A stretch of 64,000 nt of DNA from Verrucomicrobiia bacterium (GCA_963664225.1 OY760937.1:4096001-4160000); one strand, 5' to 3'. Counted from the stretch's first letter, positions 17,726 to 62,278 are shown. Numbers and translations are program-made. Notes: generated from the sequence alone by a model not told the origin.

Positions 17726-17801
17726 GGGGTCGTAGCTCAGTTGGTAGAGCGTCTCGTTCGCAATGAGAAGGTCGCAGGTTCGATTCCTGTCGGCTCCACC
17801 A
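17726..17801 (+). tRNA. tRNA-Ala (anticodon CGC)
   Basis: GGGGTCG/CGGCTCC acceptor stem with G3:U70, D-arm AGCTCAGTTGGTAGAGC, anticodon loop TTCGCAA, GGTTCGATTCC T-arm, encoded CCA. Confidence 0.97.
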
Positions 17802-18819: not shown

Positions 18820-19833
18820 ATGAAAACGAATCTCTTCAAACTGTGGGGCGTGATCTCTTTGCTCGCCGCCTTGAATTTACATGTGCAAGCGGCTCCCGGC
18901 GTTGTGTATGAAGGCAAGGCAGGCCCGGGCCTGGGCAAGCACATCGTCTTCCTGGCAGGTGACGAGGAATACCGGTCCGAGGAGGGCCTGCCCCAGATGG
19001 CCCAAATTCTGGCCAAACGCCACGGTTTCAAATGCACTGTTCTTTTCTCCATCGACCCCACCAACGGGACCATTGCGCCCACGGCTCAAAGGAACATTCC
19101 CGGACTGGAGATTCTGCCCACGGCGGACATGGTGGTGATGCTGCTGCGCTTTCGCGAGTTGCCCGATGATCGCATGAAGTATTTCGTGGATTACCTCAAT
19201 TCCGGGAAACCCATTCTGGCTCTGCGCACTTCCACGCATGCCTTTGCCTACGAGGCCAATAAACAGAGTCCCTACGCGAAGTTCGATTACCGCAGCAAGG
19301 AATGGCCCGGCGGTTTTGGACAGCAGGTGCTCGGGGAAACGTGGGTCGATCACCATGGTTCGCATGCCAAGGAAAGCACCCGGGGCATTCTCGCCGAGGC
19401 CTTCAAAACCCATCCCATTCTCAAGGGCGTCGATGACATCTGGGGTCCCACGGATGTCTATACGGTGACGCATCTGCCCAAGACCGCGCAGGTACTTGTT
19501 TATGGCCAGGTGCTTGCAGGGATGAAGCCGACCGACAAACCGGTGTCCGGCCCCAAGAACGATCCCATGATGCCGGTTGTCTGGATGCGCGAGTATCGGG
19601 GGGATTCGGGTAAAACCGCTCAGATCATCACCACCACCATGGGCGCCGCCAACGATCTCGAAAGCGCGGGTCTGCGCCGATTGCTGGTCAACGCCTGTTA
19701 CTGGGCCACCGGTTTGTCGAACCAGATTCCAGCCAGCGCGAATGTCGATCTTGTTGGGGAGTATCACCCGACCAATTTCGGATTCGACAAAGGCATCAAA
19801 GGCGTCAAGCCCGAGGATCTGGCCTGGAAATAA
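18820..19833 (+). CDS. Secreted ThuA-like (class I glutamine amidotransferase-like) domain protein
   Basis: Signal peptide; GDEEYRSEE, LRTSTHAF, HPILKGV, TTTMG..LRRLLVNACYWA. Confidence 0.75.
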   Translation: MKTNLFKLWGVISLLAALNLHVQAAPGVVYEGKAGPGLGKHIVFLAGDEEYRSEEGLPQMAQILAKRHGFKCTVLFSIDPTNGTIAPTAQRNIPGLEILPTADMVVMLLRFRELPDDRMKYFVDYLNSGKPILALRTSTHAFAYEANKQSPYAKFDYRSKEWPGGFGQQVLGETWVDHHGSHAKESTRGILAEAFKTHPILKGVDDIWGPTDVYTVTHLPKTAQVLVYGQVLAGMKPTDKPVSGPKNDPMMPVVWMREYRGDSGKTAQIITTTMGAANDLESAGLRRLLVNACYWATGLSNQIPASANVDLVGEYHPTNFGFDKGIKGVKPEDLAWK

Positions 19834-19866
19834 AGGAAACGAGATTAGCGTTCCGGTCCCGGTTTG

Positions 19867-19979
19867 GGTTGACCGCTGGGGTGGTTTTCGGTTGACCGCA
19901 GGGGGTGAGACTGGGTTGACCGCACCGGTTGACCGTTGGGTTGATTTTGGGTTGATCGCTGGTCAACCGGGTTGATTGC
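19867..19979 (+). repeat. Irregular GGTTGA(CCGC) repeat cluster
   Basis: Direct copies at 19867, 19890, 19914, 19927, 19939, 19950, 19970; inverted copy at 19961. Confidence 0.75.
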
Positions 19980-20006
19980 TGGAAACTTTGGCGGAGAGCG
20001 GAAACC

Positions 20007-20206
20007 AGAGGTCTGAGATCAGCGGTCAGAGGTCAGTGGAAGAAAGCGGAGGCCGAAATTAACAGGAATGGGCAGGATGGGGGGGATTAACCACAAAGAA
20101 CACATAGATCCCAAAGAACCGCCAATGAACGGGAAAAAAAACCACAGGGGCACAGAGGCACGGAGAAGGAAAATTCACATGGATGGGCAGGATTAACAGG
20201 ATGGGG
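20007..20206 (+). repeat. Cluster of short 7-9-nt period repeat modules
   Basis: AGAGGTC heptamers; AACCACAAAGAACACATAGATCCCAAAG; AACCACAGGGGCACAGAGGCACGGAG; CACATGGATGGGCAGGATTAACAGGAT. Confidence 0.7.
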
Positions 20207-20258
20207 ACCGGACTGCTGGGAGGTTCTGAGAAAAAGAGGTCGTGAGGAAGTTCAAATG

Positions 20259-20353
20259 TTTGAATGAAGAAACCTGAGCCGCCGCTGACTCGCGGGACGC
20301 GTGGATTGCAACCGGAGCGCGATGGCCGGGTCCGCCGCAGCGCATGGTTCTGC
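20259..20353 (-). other. attC site, degenerate (R' ATT instead of GTT)
   Basis: GCAGAAC...CGCGAGTCAGCGGCGGCTCA-N9-ATTCAAA just after the phosphoesterase stop. Confidence 0.6.
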
Positions 20354-20361
20354 ATTGCTGG

Positions 20362-21201
20362 TCATGCTCGATCCAAGTGAAACAAGGTGATCTCAGGCCG
20401 CGCGTTGAACCGCACGCGCAACAGGTGCCCAACACCGCGATTAATGTACATCCTGCGTCCTCCAGAAAGCGTGAACTCTCCTGAGGTGTACCGCTTGTTT
20501 CGAACCGGCAACAGTGGAGGCGGGAGAAATGGAGGCTTGCACTGACCCCCGTGGGTGTGCCCGGCCAGAATCCATCCTCCGTATTCCCCCCAACCCGGTT
20601 TATCGACTGTGTCAGGATTGTGGCTCAACACGAGGGAGGCTTGTTGCGGATCGAGGGTTGCCAGCGTTCGTTCCGGGTCGAAGCGACGCGCCCACAAATC
20701 ATCCATTCCGGCAACCTGTAGGCCTTCGACGGCGGCAATCTCATTCCGCAGCACTCTCACCCCGGCGGACAGCGCCAATGCCGCAATCGCGTCCGCGACC
20801 TCAGGATGTGCCCATCCGGGGCCATAGTCGTGGTTCCCCAGGATGCCCAAGGTGGCCAGGTTACCCAACGGCAACTGGGCAAAAACGCGACCGGCATGTG
20901 CGAGGATGTTGCTGTCATAGCTGGTCAAATCGCCGGTATAAACCACGATCTCGGGGGCGAGGTCCCTGACCCGCTTAAAGATCTGCATGAGATAGGCATC
21001 CTCAACGCGTGGGCCGATGTGAAGGTCGCTCAACTGCACCAAACGTGCATCTTTCAGCCGGTCCGGAAGGTGCGCCACCGGGAGTCGGTGTTCGACGACC
21101 TCCACCCAGTGAGGCTCCCAGCGCCAGGTGTACACGCCCACGCCCAGCCCGAGACCGGATGCGACTGCCGTGGCTCGCAGGAATTGACGACGGGTGATCA
21201 T
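20362..21201 (-). CDS. Calcineurin-like metallophosphoesterase (YkuE/YaeI-like), integron cassette
   Basis: SDLH, TGD, GNHD, SHNPD, GHTHGGQ motifs; TRRQFLR leader. Confidence 0.9.
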   Translation of the reverse strand: MITRRQFLRATAVASGLGLGVGVYTWRWEPHWVEVVEHRLPVAHLPDRLKDARLVQLSDLHIGPRVEDAYLMQIFKRVRDLAPEIVVYTGDLTSYDSNILAHAGRVFAQLPLGNLATLGILGNHDYGPGWAHPEVADAIAALALSAGVRVLRNEIAAVEGLQVAGMDDLWARRFDPERTLATLDPQQASLVLSHNPDTVDKPGWGEYGGWILAGHTHGGQCKPPFLPPPLLPVRNKRYTSGEFTLSGGRRMYINRGVGHLLRVRFNARPEITLFHLDRA

Positions 21202-21227
21202 GCAGACAGGGGCTTTGTGGGCATCAT

Positions 21228-21452
21228 GCGGAACGGAGAAAGGGGAGCCACGCGGAAACCATGGCGTGGTAAAGCTGAAAACTCAGGCGCGGAACGGCCA
21301 GCGTCAATGAAGGCTGGCTTCCGCGATTTATCAGGTGGTGTCATTTTGGTATCCATTGATATTCAATGCCTGATGCTTCGATTATCCAGCGATGCCCGAA
21401 TTGTGACCGGCCTGAACGGCTGGCTCCCGTACACTCCACGCTCTGGTTCAGC
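21228..21452 (-). other. Abnormally long or disrupted attC site
   Basis: Left arm GCTGAAC..GGGAGCCA at about 21421-21452; right arm TGGCTCCC..GTTCCGC at about 21228-21250. Confidence 0.45.
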
Positions 21453-21462
21453 ATTTTGGGGG

Positions 21463-22050
21463 TTATCGTTGAAAGGGTTGGGTAACTGCCACAGCCAACT
21501 CATGAGGCACGGCGGGATGAGCATTGCAAATGTCGTCGGCTGTGACGTGGGGCAGCGACGGCTGATGCTGGCGAATGGTGCGGATAATGCCGGAGTCTAG
21601 AGCCAAGAGCTGTTCAGTGAGACAACACGCGGAACGATAGCTCTCAACGTCAGCGTACCAGTCTGAATAGAGATGCTCACGCATGTAGCGAATCGAGAAA
21701 TGTGTGGCCAAGCCTTCGTCCAAGACTATGGTTCTCTGTTCGCCAGACGGTGACAGAAGGTGGACGGCCTCGTGCGCCATCTGAAAACACGCACGCTCCA
21801 TGTCGGTCGCGCATGCTGGACTAATCTGAACGACAACGTGGCCGCAATTTCCTGGATACCAAATCTGTGGAATGTTCCCGCCGAACTCAACACCCAAAAG
21901 TGTGTAGTTCCGGACACATGGGCCGTAGAGTTCCTGAGCAATGCCGAGGATGTGACCGAGACGAGAAGCAAGAGTCCACGTCCAGCCAGTGCCACTGGGG
22001 AGGGGTCTAGCATACAAAAGGTCGGTCTCAAATTGGACGTTTGCGATCAC
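21463..22050 (-). CDS. HExxH zinc metallopeptidase-like cassette protein
   Basis: MAHEAVH followed by LDEGLAT; the longer ORF start runs into an attC, so GTG at 22050 was chosen. Confidence 0.65.
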   Translation of the reverse strand: MIANVQFETDLLYARPLPSGTGWTWTLASRLGHILGIAQELYGPCVRNYTLLGVEFGGNIPQIWYPGNCGHVVVQISPACATDMERACFQMAHEAVHLLSPSGEQRTIVLDEGLATHFSIRYMREHLYSDWYADVESYRSACCLTEQLLALDSGIIRTIRQHQPSLPHVTADDICNAHPAVPHELAVAVTQPFQR

Positions 22051-22064
22051 GGGTTCAAATAAAT

Positions 22065-22190
22065 CCCGAAAGGAAAAAGTTGAGCCACAGGCATCGTGAG
22101 CCAGCACAACCAATAAAAGAAAACATAATGAAAAAGCAAAACTCGAAACAGCAAGGCGCAATGCCCGTTGGCTCCCGCGTCTTGTTAGGC
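22065..22190 (-). other. attC site (126 bp, R' TTT instead of GTT)
   Basis: GCCTAAC..GAGCCAAC...GTGGCTCA-N9-TTTCGGG. Confidence 0.7.
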
Positions 22191-22265
22191 CACAGGGTCA
22201 TCGCCGCACCATCCAAACAAGAATAGAACCGGGCGGCGCGTGAGGACTCCAAGGCGCTGGAATCT

Positions 22266-22550
22266 CTACCCACAAGTAAGCTCCTTGTTGAGGTTTCGAA
22301 TGGCGTCATTCCAGCTAAACGTCCTAAAAAAGGGAAGCCAATTCGGCGGCGCAATAAAGCGATGACCGCTACCCTCCCTCCAAATCGGAACAACCGTGCC
22401 GGCAAGACCGGCGGAACTGGCGCAAGCCTGTAACCTGGATATGCTGTCATGCTGGTCACTCTCGGACTTGTATCCGAACGATGAATCGAGCGGGATGACT
22501 ATGAGGTCAATACCCTGCTCCCTGATGTGTGCGATTTTGTATTGCGACAT
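22266..22550 (-). CDS. Hypothetical cassette protein (94 aa)
   Basis: ORF bounded by attC sites; cassette start GCTAGGCCACA complements end TGTGGCCTAAC. Confidence 0.75.
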   Translation of the reverse strand: MSQYKIAHIREQGIDLIVIPLDSSFGYKSESDQHDSISRLQACASSAGLAGTVVPIWREGSGHRFIAPPNWLPFFRTFSWNDAIRNLNKELTCG

Positions 22551-22571
22551 AAAATATAAATGCGCTTTGTG

Positions 22572-22670
22572 GCCTAGCGCCGGAACTCACACGCGCTGGG
22601 CCAATGATGTGAACCGCGAAATCGGTACTGAGTGCGCCATCCGGCGCTGGCTGTAGTGATCCCGTTCGGC
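22572..22670 (-). other. attC site (99 bp, R' GCT)
   Basis: GCCGAAC...GCTAGGC with internal dyad symmetry; related to the 99-bp attC family at 62-64 kb. Confidence 0.75.
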
Positions 22671-22688
22671 TGCAAATTCGTCATACTC

Positions 22689-22856
22689 TCACTTCTCGCT
22701 CTCGCGCATCTTGCGCACAGCCTGCTCAGCGGCAGCGGCAAGACGCTCATGTGCACTCATCGCTCGCCAGCCAACAACCATCCAGAAGATCGCTGAAAAT
22801 ATCGCGGCGAGAATCGCAAACATTGCGAGCGCGCCACCTGATGCGTTTATGTTCAT
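22689..22856 (-). CDS. Small single-transmembrane cassette protein (55 aa)
   Basis: MNINASGGALAMFAILAAIFSAIFWMVVGWRAM; lies between two attC sites. Confidence 0.65.
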   Translation of the reverse strand: MNINASGGALAMFAILAAIFSAIFWMVVGWRAMSAHERLAAAAEQAVRKMRESEK

Positions 22857-22886
22857 AATGTAAAAATGGACTCGATGTGACTTGCG

Positions 22887-23012
22887 GCCGAACGACCGAG
22901 CTCGCGCACCACCAGGTGAGCGCCGACAACGAAAATGAAGGGAGCAGCCGAAAAACCAGAAGCGACAAAACTGAGGCGTCCACGGTTGATGCGTGCAACG
23001 ACCTGGTTGGGC
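22887..23012 (-). other. attC site (126 bp)
   Basis: R'' GCCCAAC and R' GTTCGGC, both intact. Confidence 0.85.
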
Positions 23013-23025
23013 CACATAGCTCGTT

Positions 23026-23328
23026 TCATTGGTGCATCAAAATCGTCATAGCGATATATCCCAAAAGGAACTGAAGTGCAAAAATGGCGATAGCAATCAA
23101 TGCCAGCTTACTCTGACGAACCCCAAAAAGAATTAGCGAGATAACCGTGCAAATAATCGTGACAGGCAAAGTGCAGACCACCACCGCAAATGCCGAAATG
23201 CTCGGATGATGACCTGTGAATATCTGGCAAAGCGCGATGGCCATCGTCACAAAACTGATGCTGGCGCAAACAAACGCGACCAAATTCGCACTTGCCGCGA
23301 ACGACTGACTCTTGGAACTCGATGTCAT
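23026..23328 (-). CDS. Three-transmembrane cassette protein (100 aa)
   Basis: Hydrophobic ORF between attC sites. Confidence 0.7.
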   Translation of the reverse strand: MTSSSKSQSFAASANLVAFVCASISFVTMAIALCQIFTGHHPSISAFAVVVCTLPVTIICTVISLILFGVRQSKLALIAIAIFALQFLLGYIAMTILMHQ

Positions 23329-23348
23329 ACGTTTTGTGGTGTCATGTG

Positions 23349-23441
23349 GCCGAACGACCCGGCTCAGGCAGGCAGGGCCAATGGTGTTCAATTGCCATCC
23401 GAGATGCGAACCCGGCCTTGCCTGCAGTCGGCTGGTTCGGC
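23349..23441 (-). other. attC site (93 bp)
   Basis: GCCGAAC..CAGGC...GCCTG..GTTCGGC imperfect palindrome. Confidence 0.88.
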
Positions 23442-23460
23442 CACATTGTGACGGCCGATT

Positions 23461-23646
23461 TCATGTGTAGTTGATGTTGCCAAAACCAAGGAATGAGCGG
23501 CAGTGAGGACACAAGAGAAACTGCTTCCGTTCAATGAACCCGATTCCCTTGGATTTTACCCAGATGAACTTCAGTTCTTTCTTGCAGTGGGGGCAGATAG
23601 GCCAGACGTCATCTGGCGCTTCCTGAATATCGAGCTTCTTAGGCAT
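23461..23646 (-). CDS. Zinc-ribbon mini-protein, first cassette (61 aa)
   Basis: Two CPHC motifs; AAGGAG ribosome binding site. Confidence 0.75.
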   Translation of the reverse strand: MPKKLDIQEAPDDVWPICPHCKKELKFIWVKSKGIGFIERKQFLLCPHCRSFLGFGNINYT

Positions 23647-23660
23647 ACATTGTCTCCTTT

Positions 23661-23680
23661 GCCGAACTTTGGTTATACGA
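23661..23680 (-). other. attI-like primary recombination site
   Basis: GTATAACCAAAG|TTCGGC with no attC hairpin upstream; resembles attI1 CTAAAACAAAGTT; its core complements the R'' of the first cassette. Confidence 0.65.
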
Positions 23681-23760
23681 CGGTCGGTTCATTGATCCCA
23701 GCCGAAGAATCTGTCGTCCTTTTATTCGCAAGCTATTCATTAGCAATTGCTCGTTTCCTT

Positions 23761-23790
23761 GATATAGGACCTCCGGTTCGTTTATTGCAA
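23761..23790 (-). promoter_or_regulatory. Candidate cassette promoter (Pc)
   Basis: TTGCAA-N18-TATATC about 100 bp upstream of attI, facing the cassettes. Confidence 0.4.
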
Positions 23791-24019
23791 GTCGGATCAC
23801 GTCATTGGCACGCATTTCTCCGTGCATAATTGCAGGGTGTGCTTCGATGGGAAAGCCGTCAAGCGGTTAGTGGAAGAATAATGATCAGGGGAGGCGGCAT
23901 TCAAGCGCTTTCCGTCAAAAGTTTAAAGATGCAGGGAAAATGTATTCGCAAGAAAGAAAGGCGGTGACATTCAGGACGACGATTTTCAGAATCCGGGGTT
24001 GTGAGTATTGCATCTGATT

Positions 24020-24120
24020 CAACTCCTTCGGAGTAGGTTTGGTGTGTTGGGGGCGATTACCCCGGGTAGGCCTCGGCGGGCAACCCGGGGCTGAATGATT
24101 GCAACCCGTTCCGGGTTGCC
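24020..24120. repeat. REP-like hairpin group
   Basis: ACTCCTTCGGAGT, CCCCGGGT...ACCCGGGG and CAACCCGTTCCGGGTTG hairpins. Confidence 0.6.
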
Positions 24121-24250
24121 GGGAGGATGGGGAAGAACAGCGATGAAAAAAGAATTAACATGGATGTGCAGGATGAACAGGATGGGGGGGGAAGAGGAAT
24201 GGATAATGGACAATGGAAAATTAGGGTCCCGGGTCCCGTCCTAAAATAGG

Positions 24251-24637
24251 TTGTCCCTAATGAGACAACAAAACAGTGTTCGAAGGGTGGGGATACGGTA
24301 CAGTGAGTCGTTTAAAATGGCTGTGGTTCGGGAGCTGGAAGAGGGCGAAATGTCCTTTGAGGCGATGCGGCGAAAGTACGGCATAAAGGGCACGGGCACC
24401 GTCCAAAAGTGGGCTCGCAAGTACGGCAGGGGCGATTTAGGAAAGGTCATACGCGTGGAAACACCTAAAGAATTCAATGAACGGGATCAAATGAAGAAGC
24501 GAATCAAGGCTTTGGAGAAAGCGTTGGCCGATGCGCACATCGATCTGGCGATCGAGCGTGCCACCATCCAAGTGGCCTGCGAACGGGCGGGGATTAAGGA
24601 TGTGGCGGAGTTCAAAAAAAAAGTGGCTGGGAAATAG
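24251..24637 (+). CDS. IS3-family OrfA (helix-turn-helix)
   Basis: RYSESFKMAVV..KWARKYG; ends over an A9G slippery run. Confidence 0.9.
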   Translation: MSLMRQQNSVRRVGIRYSESFKMAVVRELEEGEMSFEAMRRKYGIKGTGTVQKWARKYGRGDLGKVIRVETPKEFNERDQMKKRIKALEKALADAHIDLAIERATIQVACERAGIKDVAEFKKKVAGK

Positions 24638-24675
24638 CCCATTGTGCGGTCAGGGGAGGTTCGGCGGATCAGGAG

Positions 24676-25512
24676 GTGCCGGTCAAAGGGGTGTGTCGCC
24701 GACTGGGGATGAGCCGCCAGAACTTCTATGCGGGGCGCACGCGGCGGATGCGCAAGAAAGTGGAGGGCGACCTTGTGGCGGATTTAGTGCGTCAGGAGCG
24801 CAGGAAGCATCCGCGGATCGGGGCGCGAAAGCTCCACAGGACGATCAAGCCAGCCCTGGAAAAGGCCGGAGTAAAAATGGGGCGGGACCGCCTGTTTGAA
24901 GAGTTGCGAGAGCGGGATTTGCTGGTGCCGCCGCTGCCCCGGCAATGGCCCCAGACAACCCATTACAATCCCAGTTTGCCGGTGTTTCACAATGAGATCA
25001 AGGAACGGGAGGTGAAGCGGGCCAATGAGGTTTGGGTGGCGGATATGACCTATGTGCGGACCGACGAGGGTTTTTTATATGTGTCGCTGATCACGGATAA
25101 GTATTCGCGCAAGATCGTGGGTTTCCATGCCGATGAGACGCTGGAAACCAGGGGGACGCTTGAGGCGTTGGAGATGGCGCTGGCGGCACTGCCCAGGGGA
25201 TTCAATCCGATCCATCATTCGGATCGTGGCTGTCAGTATGCCAGTCATGAGTATGTGGATCGGTTGAAGTTGGGCGGCCTGTCCATCAGCATGACGGAGG
25301 AGGATCATTGCGCGGAGAATGCGATGGCCGAACGGGTCAACGGCATCCTAAAGCAGGAGTATGGCATAGGGTATGGATTTAAGACCAAGGCGCTGGCGCG
25401 CAAAGTAATCAGTCAGGCTGTCAATCTCTACAATACGCGCCGATTGCATACGGCATTGAATTACCAGGTGCCCGAGGCCGTTCACATCCGGGGAACCGTC
25501 GAGTATAACTAA
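24676..25512 (+). CDS. IS3-family OrfB DDE transposase
   Basis: WVADMTY, HHSDRGCQY, ENAMAERVNGILKQE, YNTRRLH. Confidence 0.93.
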   Translation: MPVKGVCRRLGMSRQNFYAGRTRRMRKKVEGDLVADLVRQERRKHPRIGARKLHRTIKPALEKAGVKMGRDRLFEELRERDLLVPPLPRQWPQTTHYNPSLPVFHNEIKEREVKRANEVWVADMTYVRTDEGFLYVSLITDKYSRKIVGFHADETLETRGTLEALEMALAALPRGFNPIHHSDRGCQYASHEYVDRLKLGGLSISMTEEDHCAENAMAERVNGILKQEYGIGYGFKTKALARKVISQAVNLYNTRRLHTALNYQVPEAVHIRGTVEYN

Positions 25513-25728
25513 GAAGCCATACCGGCCTGAGAGGGGAGGGTCCGCGCCACAGTGCCCCTTCGGGTCCACTACGGCATTGGCACTTCGTGCCAAAGCCTCC
25601 GTTCCCCCGAAGGGGCACTGCTCTCCTCCTGAAGGTGTGGGACAGTAGGAAGATTCCCTCCGACCGGAAACCGAAAGAAATAAGACTCAGGAAAAAGTGA
25701 CAAATTTAAACCAGGACTTGACCATAGG

Positions 25729-26115
25729 TTGTCCCTAATGAGACAACAAAACAGTGTTCGAAGGGTGGGGATACGGTACAGTGAGTCGTTTAAAATGGCT
25801 GTGGTTCGGGAGCTGGAAGAGGGCGAAATGTCCTTTGAGGCGATGCGGCGAAAGTACGGCATAAAGGGCACGGGCACCGTCCAAAAGTGGGCTCGCAAGT
25901 ACGGCAGGGGCGATTTAGGAAAGGTCATACGCGTGGAAACACCTAAAGAATTCAATGAACGGGATCAAATGAAGAAGCGAATCAAGGCTTTGGAGAAAGC
26001 GTTGGCCGATGCGCACATCGATCTGGCGATCGAGCGTGCCACCATCCAAGTGGCCTGCGAACGGGCGGGGATTAAGGATGTGGCGGAGTTCAAAAAAAAA
26101 GTGGCTGGGAAATAG
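25729..26115 (+). CDS. IS3-family OrfA, copy 2
   Basis: Protein identical to 24251-24637. Confidence 0.9.
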   Translation: MSLMRQQNSVRRVGIRYSESFKMAVVRELEEGEMSFEAMRRKYGIKGTGTVQKWARKYGRGDLGKVIRVETPKEFNERDQMKKRIKALEKALADAHIDLAIERATIQVACERAGIKDVAEFKKKVAGK

Positions 26116-26153
26116 CCCATTGTGCGGTCAGGGGAGGTTCGGCGGATCAGGAG

Positions 26154-26990
26154 GTGCCGGTCAAAGGGGTGTGTCGCCGACTGGGGATGAGCCGCCAGAA
26201 CTTCTATGCGGGGCGCACGCGGCGGATGCGCAAGAAAGTGGAGGGCGACCTTGTGGCGGATTTAGTGCGTCAGGAGCGCAGGAAGCATCCGCGGATCGGG
26301 GCGCGAAAGCTCCACAGGACGATCAAGCCAGCCCTGGAAAAGGCCGGAGTAAAAATGGGGCGGGACCGCCTGTTTGAAGAGTTGCGAGAGCGGGATTTGC
26401 TGGTGCCGCCGCTGCCCCGGCAATGGCCCCAGACAACCCATTACAATCCCAGTTTGCCGGTGTTTCACAATGAGATCAAGGAACGGGAGGTGAAGCGGGC
26501 CAATGAGGTTTGGGTGGCGGATATGACCTATGTGCGGACCGACGAGGGTTTTTTATATGTGTCGCTGATCACGGATAAGTATTCGCGCAAGATCGTGGGT
26601 TTCCATGCCGATGAGACGCTGGAAACCAGGGGGACGCTTGAGGCGTTGGAGATGGCGCTGGCGGCACTGCCCAGGGGATTCAATCCGATCCATCATTCGG
26701 ATCGTGGCTGTCAGTATGCCAGTCATGAGTATGTGGATCGGTTGAAGTTGGGCGGCCTGTCCATCAGCATGACGGAGGAGGATCATTGCGCGGAGAATGC
26801 GATGGCCGAACGGGTCAACGGCATCCTAAAGCAGGAGTATGGCATAGGGTATGGATTTAAGACCAAGGCGCTGGCGCGCAAAGTAATCAGTCAGGCTGTC
26901 AATCTCTACAATACGCGCCGATTGCATACGGCATTGAATTACCAGGTGCCCGAGGCCGTTCACATCCGGGGAAGCGTCGAGTATAACTAA
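26154..26990 (+). CDS. IS3-family OrfB, copy 2
   Basis: Identical except T>S near the C-terminus. Confidence 0.93.
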   Translation: MPVKGVCRRLGMSRQNFYAGRTRRMRKKVEGDLVADLVRQERRKHPRIGARKLHRTIKPALEKAGVKMGRDRLFEELRERDLLVPPLPRQWPQTTHYNPSLPVFHNEIKEREVKRANEVWVADMTYVRTDEGFLYVSLITDKYSRKIVGFHADETLETRGTLEALEMALAALPRGFNPIHHSDRGCQYASHEYVDRLKLGGLSISMTEEDHCAENAMAERVNGILKQEYGIGYGFKTKALARKVISQAVNLYNTRRLHTALNYQVPEAVHIRGSVEYN

Positions 26991-27201
26991 GAAGCCATAC
27001 CGGCCTGAGAGGGGAGGGTCCGCGCCACAGTGCCCCTTCGGGTCCACTACGGCATTGGCACTTCGTGCCAAAGCCTCCGTTCCCCCGAAGGGGCACTGCT
27101 CTCCTCTTGAAGGTGTGGGACAGTAGGAAGATTCCCTCCGACCGGAAACCGAAAGAAATAAGACTCAGGAAAAAGTGACAAATTTAAACCAGGACTTGAC
27201 C

Positions 27202-62114: not shown

Positions 62115-62154
62115 GGATTCGAGACTTTCAGGCAATGCAGGATTTGTCGGTGGT

Positions 62155-62254
62155 GGTAAACGTGGAGGGGTTAGGCGCTCGGGGGTGAGGACATGAACCG
62201 CGTGCGGAACTGGAGACGCCATTCCGTCTTGCCTGTTGCGATATTTTGTCAGGC
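62155..62254 (-). other. Degenerate attC site
   Basis: GCCTGAC...CAGTTCCGC.CGCGGTTCA...GTTTACC; same family as neighbours. Confidence 0.55.
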
Positions 62255-62278
62255 TGCTGGTCGTAAATCATCTGCGTA

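Follow-up and report, generated by a model that had tools for sequence, protein, structure and literature searches.

A repeated candidate attI-like element at the head of a decaying, integrase-less cassette array in a Verrucomicrobiia genome

Arrays of integron cassettes without an integrase gene are called CALINs (attC-site clusters that have no integron-integrase). Cury et al. (2016, PMC4889954), in the part of that paper on which we draw, define a CALIN as two or more attC sites that have no intI in their vicinity, and report that about half of the CALINs lie in genomes without IntI and that 95% have no intI pseudogene in the neighborhood. CALINs are common, and there is debate on whether they are what remains of lost integrons or result from insertion at non-classical sites. 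Here, we analyzed a stretch of 64,000 nt from a soil-type Verrucomicrobiia bacterium (hereafter the window, C1:4096001-4160000 of a single-contig genome of 5.78 Mb with a completeness of 96%). The minus strand of window positions 20266-23667 is an integron-type cassette array without an integrase, i.e., a CALIN, which is now decaying; both the attC models and the intI searches place it in this class. Since the array is read from the minus strand, window coordinates decrease in the downstream direction. The definition in the cited part of Cury et al. ignores the head of the array (attI is unknown for most integrons), whereas here the head is defined, repeated in the genome and common to many small CALINs.

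Insertion of cassettes outside integrons has been described by Loot et al. (bioRxiv 10.1101/2022.09.11.507474). According to the portion of the preprint considered here, IntI can place cassettes in attG sites outside integrons, which was proposed as the origin of small CALINs. The attG hotspots are minimal sites of ~18 nt which are used as double-stranded DNA at frequencies near those of attI. The attG sites and the SALINs (single attC sites lacking integron-integrases) resemble our case in G↓TT-type insertion outside platforms (the arrow marks the crossover point) and in the small size of the arrays. In the same portion of that work, the receptor is double-stranded and expression depends on a nearby promoter. 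However, those sites are scattered, unrelated sequences of E. coli found by experiment, while here one conserved repeat family is reused, and it resembles some genuine attI sites.

Gene-less promoter cassettes have been described in Vibrio superintegrons by Blanco et al. (2024, PMC11014356). As presented in the relevant part of that paper, they are short non-coding array units that could drive downstream cassettes, which is similar to our case. However, they are bounded by ordinary attC sites, whereas the elements described below have no attC-type fold or covariation and are found mostly at array heads. Gonzales Machuca et al. (2026, PMC12901181) have described, in the part used here, delta-attI-type cassettes, in which attI-derived sites lie away from intI within arrays and still recombine. 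The likeness lies in these attI-derived sites within arrays away from intI. Their sites are fragments of attI1 and attI2 in clinical class 1 and class 2 integrons with an integrase, whereas ours is an environmental verrucomicrobial case with multiple copies and no integrase. The literature that we searched held no account of an attI-like repeat at the head of numerous arrays without an integrase, which is not proof of absence.

Two attC covariance models were built, one (R1) on 10 sites and the other (R2) on 36, and R2 was run with filters off. Genome-wide regular-expression scans for pairs of R boxes had returned hundreds of chance pairs, and the covariance models were used instead. In the RNAalifold consensus of 10 family members, AAC and GTT are paired at the base and two stems follow, with two single-base bulges on the 3' arm of the plus strand. 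Because this placement of the bulges makes the plus strand the bottom strand, the cassettes are read on the minus strand. The family has the features by which attC is defined, namely R''/R' boxes of the form RYYYAAC...GTTRRRY, an imperfect hairpin and extrahelical bases on one arm. Its 36-site alignment has 92.9% of cells paired and compensatory changes in 13 of 15 pairs, and its covariation score was 0.532, against 0.166 in shuffled alignments (0/500 as high) and at most 0.115 with partners slid. In relatives, all six loci that hold both this attC family and an intI passing the TIGR02249 profile show the canonical divergent layout; seven further intI loci have no attC match. Thus, the attC family adjoins genuine intI genes in related Limisphaerales, but not in this genome.

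Within the window, attC1 (23343-23445) is the strongest site (R2, 95.7 bits). It forms a near-perfect hairpin (DNA fold z = −4.45, 0/200 shuffles as good) and is the sole window site with a significant fold on its own. The next is attC3 (22566-22674, R2 60.1 bits), and both attC1 and attC3 have DNA matches of 76-89% in other genomes of the order (30 relatives searched). The other sites fit the attC definition poorly. attC2 (22881-23016) scores 25.7 bits (E = 1.3 × 10−4 in the window, 0.012 genome-wide), has several non-standard pairs and no significant fold (z = +0.72). For attC4 (10.3 bits, E = 1.1, match at 22060-22194; fold z = +0.20), the remnant at ~22150-22195 consists of R'' GCCTAAC (22190-22184) and the adjoining R''-side arm only, the other arm being now AT-rich. 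attC6 (20257-20357, with R'' at 20353-20347 and R' at 20273-20267) is weak (12.4 bits, E = 0.32), and its loop and R''-side arm match the consensus. The R' of attC3 reads GCTAGGC, in which the conserved GTT is mutated. Because this R' is mutated, attC4 is half lost and attC2 and attC6 are poor, we infer that the array is decaying. Far from the array, a weak R2 match was found at window 62149-62258 (14.4 bits, E = 0.1).

Each integrated cassette should begin with the complement of its own end, as a preliminary description of this stretch had proposed, and this holds for cassettes 1-4 (7/7, 6/7, 7/7 and 6/7 R-box matches between the start and the own R''). For cassette 1, for example, the start GTTCGGC matches its own R'' GCCGAAC at all seven bases. 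In 12-mers, the match to the own start exceeded that to the adjacent R' for cassette 2 (11/12 vs. 9/12) and cassette 3 (11/12 vs. 8/12); the 12-mer of cassette 4 matched its own start at 10/12 and has no adjacent R' for comparison. The same description had reported an integron array of six co-oriented open reading frames (ORFs), each followed by an attC. The array is real and the six ORFs are present, all on the minus strand. However, only a half-site follows cassette 4, none was found between ORF5 and ORF6 (21205-21465; R2 and fold scan) and the site after ORF6 is weak, and the count of six clean cassettes was too high. A complete integron would have cassettes bounded by co-oriented attC sites, which are present (three attC sites and two degenerate ones, with the plus strand as bottom strand), and an integron integrase gene, which was found neither in the window nor in the genome (TIGR02249 profile and tblastn).

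The head of the array is the end of a non-coding repeat of ~230 nt on the minus strand (23667-23892), here called the head platform. It ends in ...CGTCGTATAACCAAAG, with the crossover between G at 23667 and T at 23666. Window positions 23813-23898 have three partial matches elsewhere in the genome, and alignment of these led to a platform that ends at the head junction. With an nhmmer profile, three full copies were found (window 23660-23892, C1:1679541-1679758 and C1:4881732-4881949), together with two partial or degenerate copies and many matches to the last ~65 nt only. These last ~65 nt are also the end of a second repeat, E125, which is ~125 nt long and reads TGTTGACC...CCGGTCCAA...GTCGCATAATCAAAG↓TT. 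Both the platform and E125 end in ...GTCGCATAATCAAAG↓TT. The genome holds 11 full copies of E125 and one 5' fragment. The family is a mosaic, since the 5' part of the platform is also present in two of the E125 copies.

The head itself has no attC-type hairpin (fold z = −1.74), and R2 found no match in 23668-24300, in agreement with the earlier claim that the head lacks a hairpin. The consensus fold of 14 E125 copies is weak (−10.4 kcal/mol), and none of its 16 pairs is compensatory. Because there is no hairpin and no covariation, the head would presumably be recognized by IntI as double-stranded DNA, as judged from its sequence. A small ORF crosses the head (window 23639-23827; 62 aa, and 56 and 62 aa in the other platform copies), and its ATG is GGAG-spaced in all three. 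It was rejected as a gene, since its protein is ~71% alike (by eye) while the DNA is 82% alike, and was treated as non-coding. The possibilities that E125 is a structured RNA, the end of a group II intron or the bridge RNA of an insertion sequence (IS) were rejected, given no Rfam match (E125 and platform in three loci, L036, L045 and L046, plus the window) and no compensatory pairs. A group II intron lies at C1:1676575-1678500 (L045:576-2501; RF02005, 70.4 bits; RF00029, 43.4 bits), ~1 kb upstream of the second platform copy and on the cassette strand.

The repeat family heads other arrays as well. An attC in the correct orientation lies at most 600 nt downstream of ten of the 15 heads with an intact junction end; one of the remaining heads has a weak attC match and four have none within this distance, including the platform at 4.88 Mb. 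Three attC sites follow the platform at 1.68 Mb, and one to three such sites lie downstream of E125 at 0.222, 0.338, 0.846, 1.736, 1.754, 1.756, 1.959 and 1.962 Mb. The sequences downstream of the heads are mostly unrelated to each other, apart from one pair that is a 1.5-kb duplicate.

We compared the six bases after the G of the head with the R'' of the first attC in ten units, one duplicate being excluded. At the four variable bases, 26 of 40 positions matched, compared with a mean of 1.79/4 for non-cognate pairs (permutation P ~ 10−4). The match is 7/7 in the window and in the unit at 0.338 Mb, the latter with the unusual pair GTTATGT/ACATAAC. Thus, as expected for an attI, the window head has a G↓TT crossover after which the bases come from the first cassette, although the complementarity shows the crossover and does not discriminate an attI-type from an attC-type head. 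The junction at the head is a genuine G↓TT crossover on a non-hairpin site that stands without an integrase.

Related populations differ exactly at these sites. Logan contigs of four sequencing runs were compared with window 19500-24500; the contigs show presence only, and window parts without contig cover (e.g., 22673-22839 in three runs) carry no information. In metagenome contig L140, both flanks are common to this genome at ~94% (the repeat upstream of an E125 head on one side, the distal attC and following sequence on the other). Between the E125 head and the shared distal point, L140 has three cassettes, whose 1878 nt are absent from this genome save 40 nt of an attC, while in this genome the interval from the head at 1959115 to the same distal point is occupied by two different cassettes. 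Another contig, L138, shows a 6-kb difference that starts next to an E125 end.

At the window locus, one contig (409 nt, run X1) shows no difference from 23325-23667, and its match stops exactly at 23667. The 66 letters that follow read as an ordinary attC arm, with 28/30 matches by eye to a family member (alignment A3). A 196-nt contig of the same run carries platform positions 23661-23782 with six differences, and its 74 cassette-side letters are unlike the window. Therefore, cassette 1 occurs elsewhere behind a normal attC, and another platform copy occurs with another first cassette. At the distal end, contigs of three runs diverge at 20348-20350, in attC6. The stand-alone head site of the preliminary description is real and more general than was seen there: its repeat family heads other arrays, the flank complements the first attC, and other cassettes occur at such heads in related populations, at the platform of the 196-nt X1 contig and at the E125 head of L140.

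We searched the whole genome for an integron integrase with TIGR02249. Among 13 tyrosine-recombinase matches none exceeded the cut-off of 265 bits (best, 82 bits), and the two best loci are XerD-like (TIGR02225, 297 bits) and XerC-like (TIGR02224, 296 bits). The IntI proteins of 13 relatives, compared by tblastn with 23400-24400, gave only noise (best E = 0.086), with no match below 0.1 across the window, so the earlier statement that no integrase remnant lies upstream holds. IntI over the cut-off was found in 52 of the 151 genomes of the order. In one genome of the same genus (G001), intI is frameshifted over at least three frames (L031:8990-10375) and lies beside an attC. The junction by this broken intI, CGACAATAAATACTG↓TTAGGC, is attI-like. 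A TTGAAT box, a spacer of 16-17 nt and a TAAACT box occur ~65 nt upstream of that junction. No counterpart of the pseudogene locus was found in this genome, and synteny with G001 was uninformative on the local history of intI, the gene order being scrambled at ~70% DNA identity.

A tyrosine recombinase just upstream of the degenerate platform copy at C1:5336161-5336407 was considered as a same-strand integrase and rejected, since it is XerC-like. That copy lies directly downstream of the XerC-like gene, and an attC match in matching orientation occurs 1.3 kb further on. The preliminary description had proposed that the array is loaded in trans by a distant IntI, which fails for this chromosome, as no IntI over the cut-off is encoded in it. 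Whatever integrase loaded the array must have been lost, reside on an unassembled replicon or be of foreign origin.

We also compared the head ends with genuine attI regions. A weight matrix built from 12 head ends was applied to the regions (450 nt) upstream of intI in 33 relatives, and five of these regions matched at p ≤ 0.05, while ~1.7 are expected by chance. Three of the five (L025, L030 and L143) sit at G↓TT 157-174 nt from intI, are clearly similar in sequence and end in GCCGCATAATAACAATG↓TT, GTCGCTCAATAACAATG↓TT and GCGGCATAATTATAG↓TT. These Limisphaerales attI regions have in common with the heads the motif (G/T)CGC(A/T)(T/C)AAT..A(A/T)(A/T)G↓TT(A/C)G right before the first cassette. 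The distance is measured from the profile-aligned start of a divergent intI passing TIGR02249, whereas the window head has no intI beside it, in the window or in the genome. The head may resemble attI1, and GGTCGCATAAT may resemble the XerC arm of dif.

Cassette 1 (23355-23666) carries a zinc-ribbon-like ORF of 61 aa (23646-23461), whose Pfam zinc-ribbon matches are all below cut-off, and attC1. Cassette 2 (22893-23354) carries an ORF of 99 aa (23325-23026), hydrophobic by eye and without a Pfam or NCBIfam match, and attC2. Cassette 3 (22578-22892) has an ORF of 55 aa (22856-22689) and attC3, and this region has matches of 82-87% to relatives in the genome G013 (DNA search). Cassette 4 (22150-22577) has an ORF of 94 aa (22550-22266) and the truncated attC4. 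A 13-nt direct repeat lies on the minus strand, the copies being 105 nt apart (CCTGTGGCCTAAC then CCTGTGGCTCAAC; 22184-22196 and 22079-22091). The second copy sits within the start of ORF5 and resembles a stray R'' box, and the pair may mark the rearrangement that truncated attC4.

ORF5 (21463-22161, 232 aa) has a zinc-protease-like HEAVH motif and no Pfam or NCBIfam family. Because no attC follows it, its status as a cassette is uncertain. The last unit (20266-21201) consists of a 279-aa ORF6 (21201-20362) and the degenerate attC6. ORF6 encodes a YaeI/LpxG-like metallophosphoesterase (Metallophos, 34.6 bits vs. a cut-off of 21.5) with a weak twin-arginine translocation signal; against NF008460 it scores 152 bits, under the cut-off of 188. 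Cassettes 1-4, ORF5 and the ORF6 unit are all on the minus strand.

Repeats bracket the array. Upstream of the platform, positions 24000-24240 are a genomic repeat with 30-70 copies in its own genome (blastn), and a related repeat with ~30 copies lies at the other end of the array (20160-20220). A third repeat stretch lies at 19855-19982. The multi-copy repeats share 15-mers of the ATTAACAGGATGGGG type, and a run of GGTTGACCGC-like direct repeats occurs near the array. Similar repeats and heptamer runs, (CCCTCAG)n, are found upstream of many E125 copies. On the plus strand, an IS3-family tandem dimer (24246-27201) consists of two abutting copies of 1478 bp with 99.865% identity and with rve and HTH domains; elsewhere in the genome this element has three near-full-length copies, ~99% identical, plus shorter fragments. 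A tRNA-Ala gene (anticodon CGC) at 17726-17801 is separated from the distal array end by ~2.5 kb.

On balance, we narrowly favor the explanation that the platform and E125 ends are multi-copy attI-like landing pads, loaded by an integrase that is absent from the present chromosome. The pads belong to a lineage-specific repeat family that would derive from attI or mimic it, would be recognized by IntI and may bear a promoter. Circular cassettes would enter them by recombination of the attC × attI type, and newer cassettes would push older ones distally. The outcome would be about ten short arrays of one to three cassettes each around the chromosome. The integrase could have been lost, as the intI pseudogene in the same genus illustrates, or could be supplied by another replicon or strain.

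Several observations weigh against this explanation. The family is narrowly distributed: E125 gave no blastn match in 150 other genomes of the order and no exact-pattern match in a collection of species representatives, and occurs on only three metagenome contigs, all from one sample and none with IntI. The pattern of the shared 3' module had no match in the metagenome collection. The window platform is the most diverged copy, with ~85 nt at 75-83% and the terminal motif in common with the other two, and GTT has been lost in 4 of 14 heads and kept in the other 10. The E125 copies are young (~80-92% alike), so the missing covariation is weak evidence, and E125 may have a long attC-like fold. 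A plasmid-borne IntI may exist outside the assembly. The head promoter (Pc) of the preliminary description was not recovered either: on the cassette strand, a consensus scan found no sigma-70-like site in window 23400-24300, nor did it for E125 and the 1.68-Mb platform. A conserved TTGACG in the platform and a TTGACC, 17 nt, TAAATC arrangement in E125 were seen by eye only.

A wider form of the favored explanation, which we put forward tentatively and hold to be rather doubtful, is a distributed integron. Here, a dispersed repeat with an attI-type site, and perhaps a promoter, would provide a dozen or more pads to a non-resident integrase, and turnover would continue between strains. The integrase would come from outside the chromosome (plasmid, phage or a neighboring strain), or would be present in some members of the population only.

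The pads could also be secondary sites of the attG type, which we regard as unlikely, although it is the best of the rival explanations. In that case, a dispersed repeat unrelated to attI would by chance end in a sequence well suited as a non-classical IntI target (a GWT hotspot), and cassettes would have been placed there in a past integrase episode. It is known, from the portion of Loot et al. (10.1101/2022.09.11.507474) considered here, that IntI1-3 insert at 5'-GWT-3' sites in genomes and that small CALINs and SALINs were proposed to arise so; at the cleavage point of the heads, GTT is present in 10/14, this site class being defined experimentally. Moreover, neither the platform nor E125 was seen adjoining intI in any copy, and 28 of the 33 intI-upstream regions do not match the head motif, including that of the closest relative, G001 (score −2.7), which also counts against landing pads related to attI. 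However, the same position is used in at least ten copies, several arrays hold two to three cassettes, and three genuine attI regions, each suitably spaced from intI, are similar to the head end. The two explanations differ in the origin of the site only; the mechanism is the same.

It is improbable that E125 and the platform are gene-less promoter cassettes with an unusually long recombination site, spread among arrays by IntI, so that the head would be an internal boundary and the true attI would be gone. Promoter-active gene-less cassettes are known from Vibrio arrays, as the relevant part of PMC11014356 describes, and two E125 copies lie 35-48 nt past an attC within an array. In 6 of 10 E125 copies an R''-like box (GCCGAAC or GCAGAAC, then CTCYGA) stands just 5' of the core, and these copies have imperfect inverted repeats (fold z from −0.5 to −3.05); both facts fit this proposal, as do the conserved boxes seen by eye in E125, and both also tell against attI-like pads. 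E125 was considered as a long attC as well, and was rejected since the folds are weak and inconsistent. Against such cassettes, the lack of an R2 attC match in 23668-24300 means that the unit is not bounded on both sides; nor did R2 show an attC just upstream of the other leading heads, save in the tandem arrays at 1.75 and 1.96 Mb, the upstream flanks not having been searched separately. In addition, the 14 E125 copies have no compensatory pairs, against 13/15 in real attC sites, simple or REP-like (repetitive extragenic palindromic) repeats, and not cassettes, adjoin the platform copies on the upstream side, and the promoter was not called by the scan.

Finally, it is very improbable that the array is the relic of one complete integron from which intI was removed locally (e.g., by the adjacent IS3 dimer) with the head as leftover attI. 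In its favor, two IS3 copies do lie 580 bp upstream, the cited part of PMC4889954 discusses the loss of integrases and rearrangement as sources of CALINs, G001 of the same genus has a frameshifted intI and the array shows decay. Against it, 24000-24240 is a multi-copy repeat and not integron sequence, and the IS3 dimer is not the cause of the missing intI. A simple local deletion is unlikely because the 580 bp between head and IS3 are free of any IntI-like coding trace, although in relatives where it could be read the start of intI is only about 105-370 nt away from the crossover, and because two further loci have the same platform and likewise lack intI and IS3.

In most lineages attI cannot be searched for, because its sequence is unknown. 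Here, a natural example allows direct reading of the receptor site: one repeated sequence heads many small arrays, carries the signatures of crossover and marks the exact points at which strains differ. If the pads are indeed recognized by IntI, cassette capture would not be tied to a single intI-attI platform, and an integrase acting in trans or transiently could load many chromosomal sites. The heads would then also provide a testable attI-like sequence for the poorly studied phylum Verrucomicrobiota.

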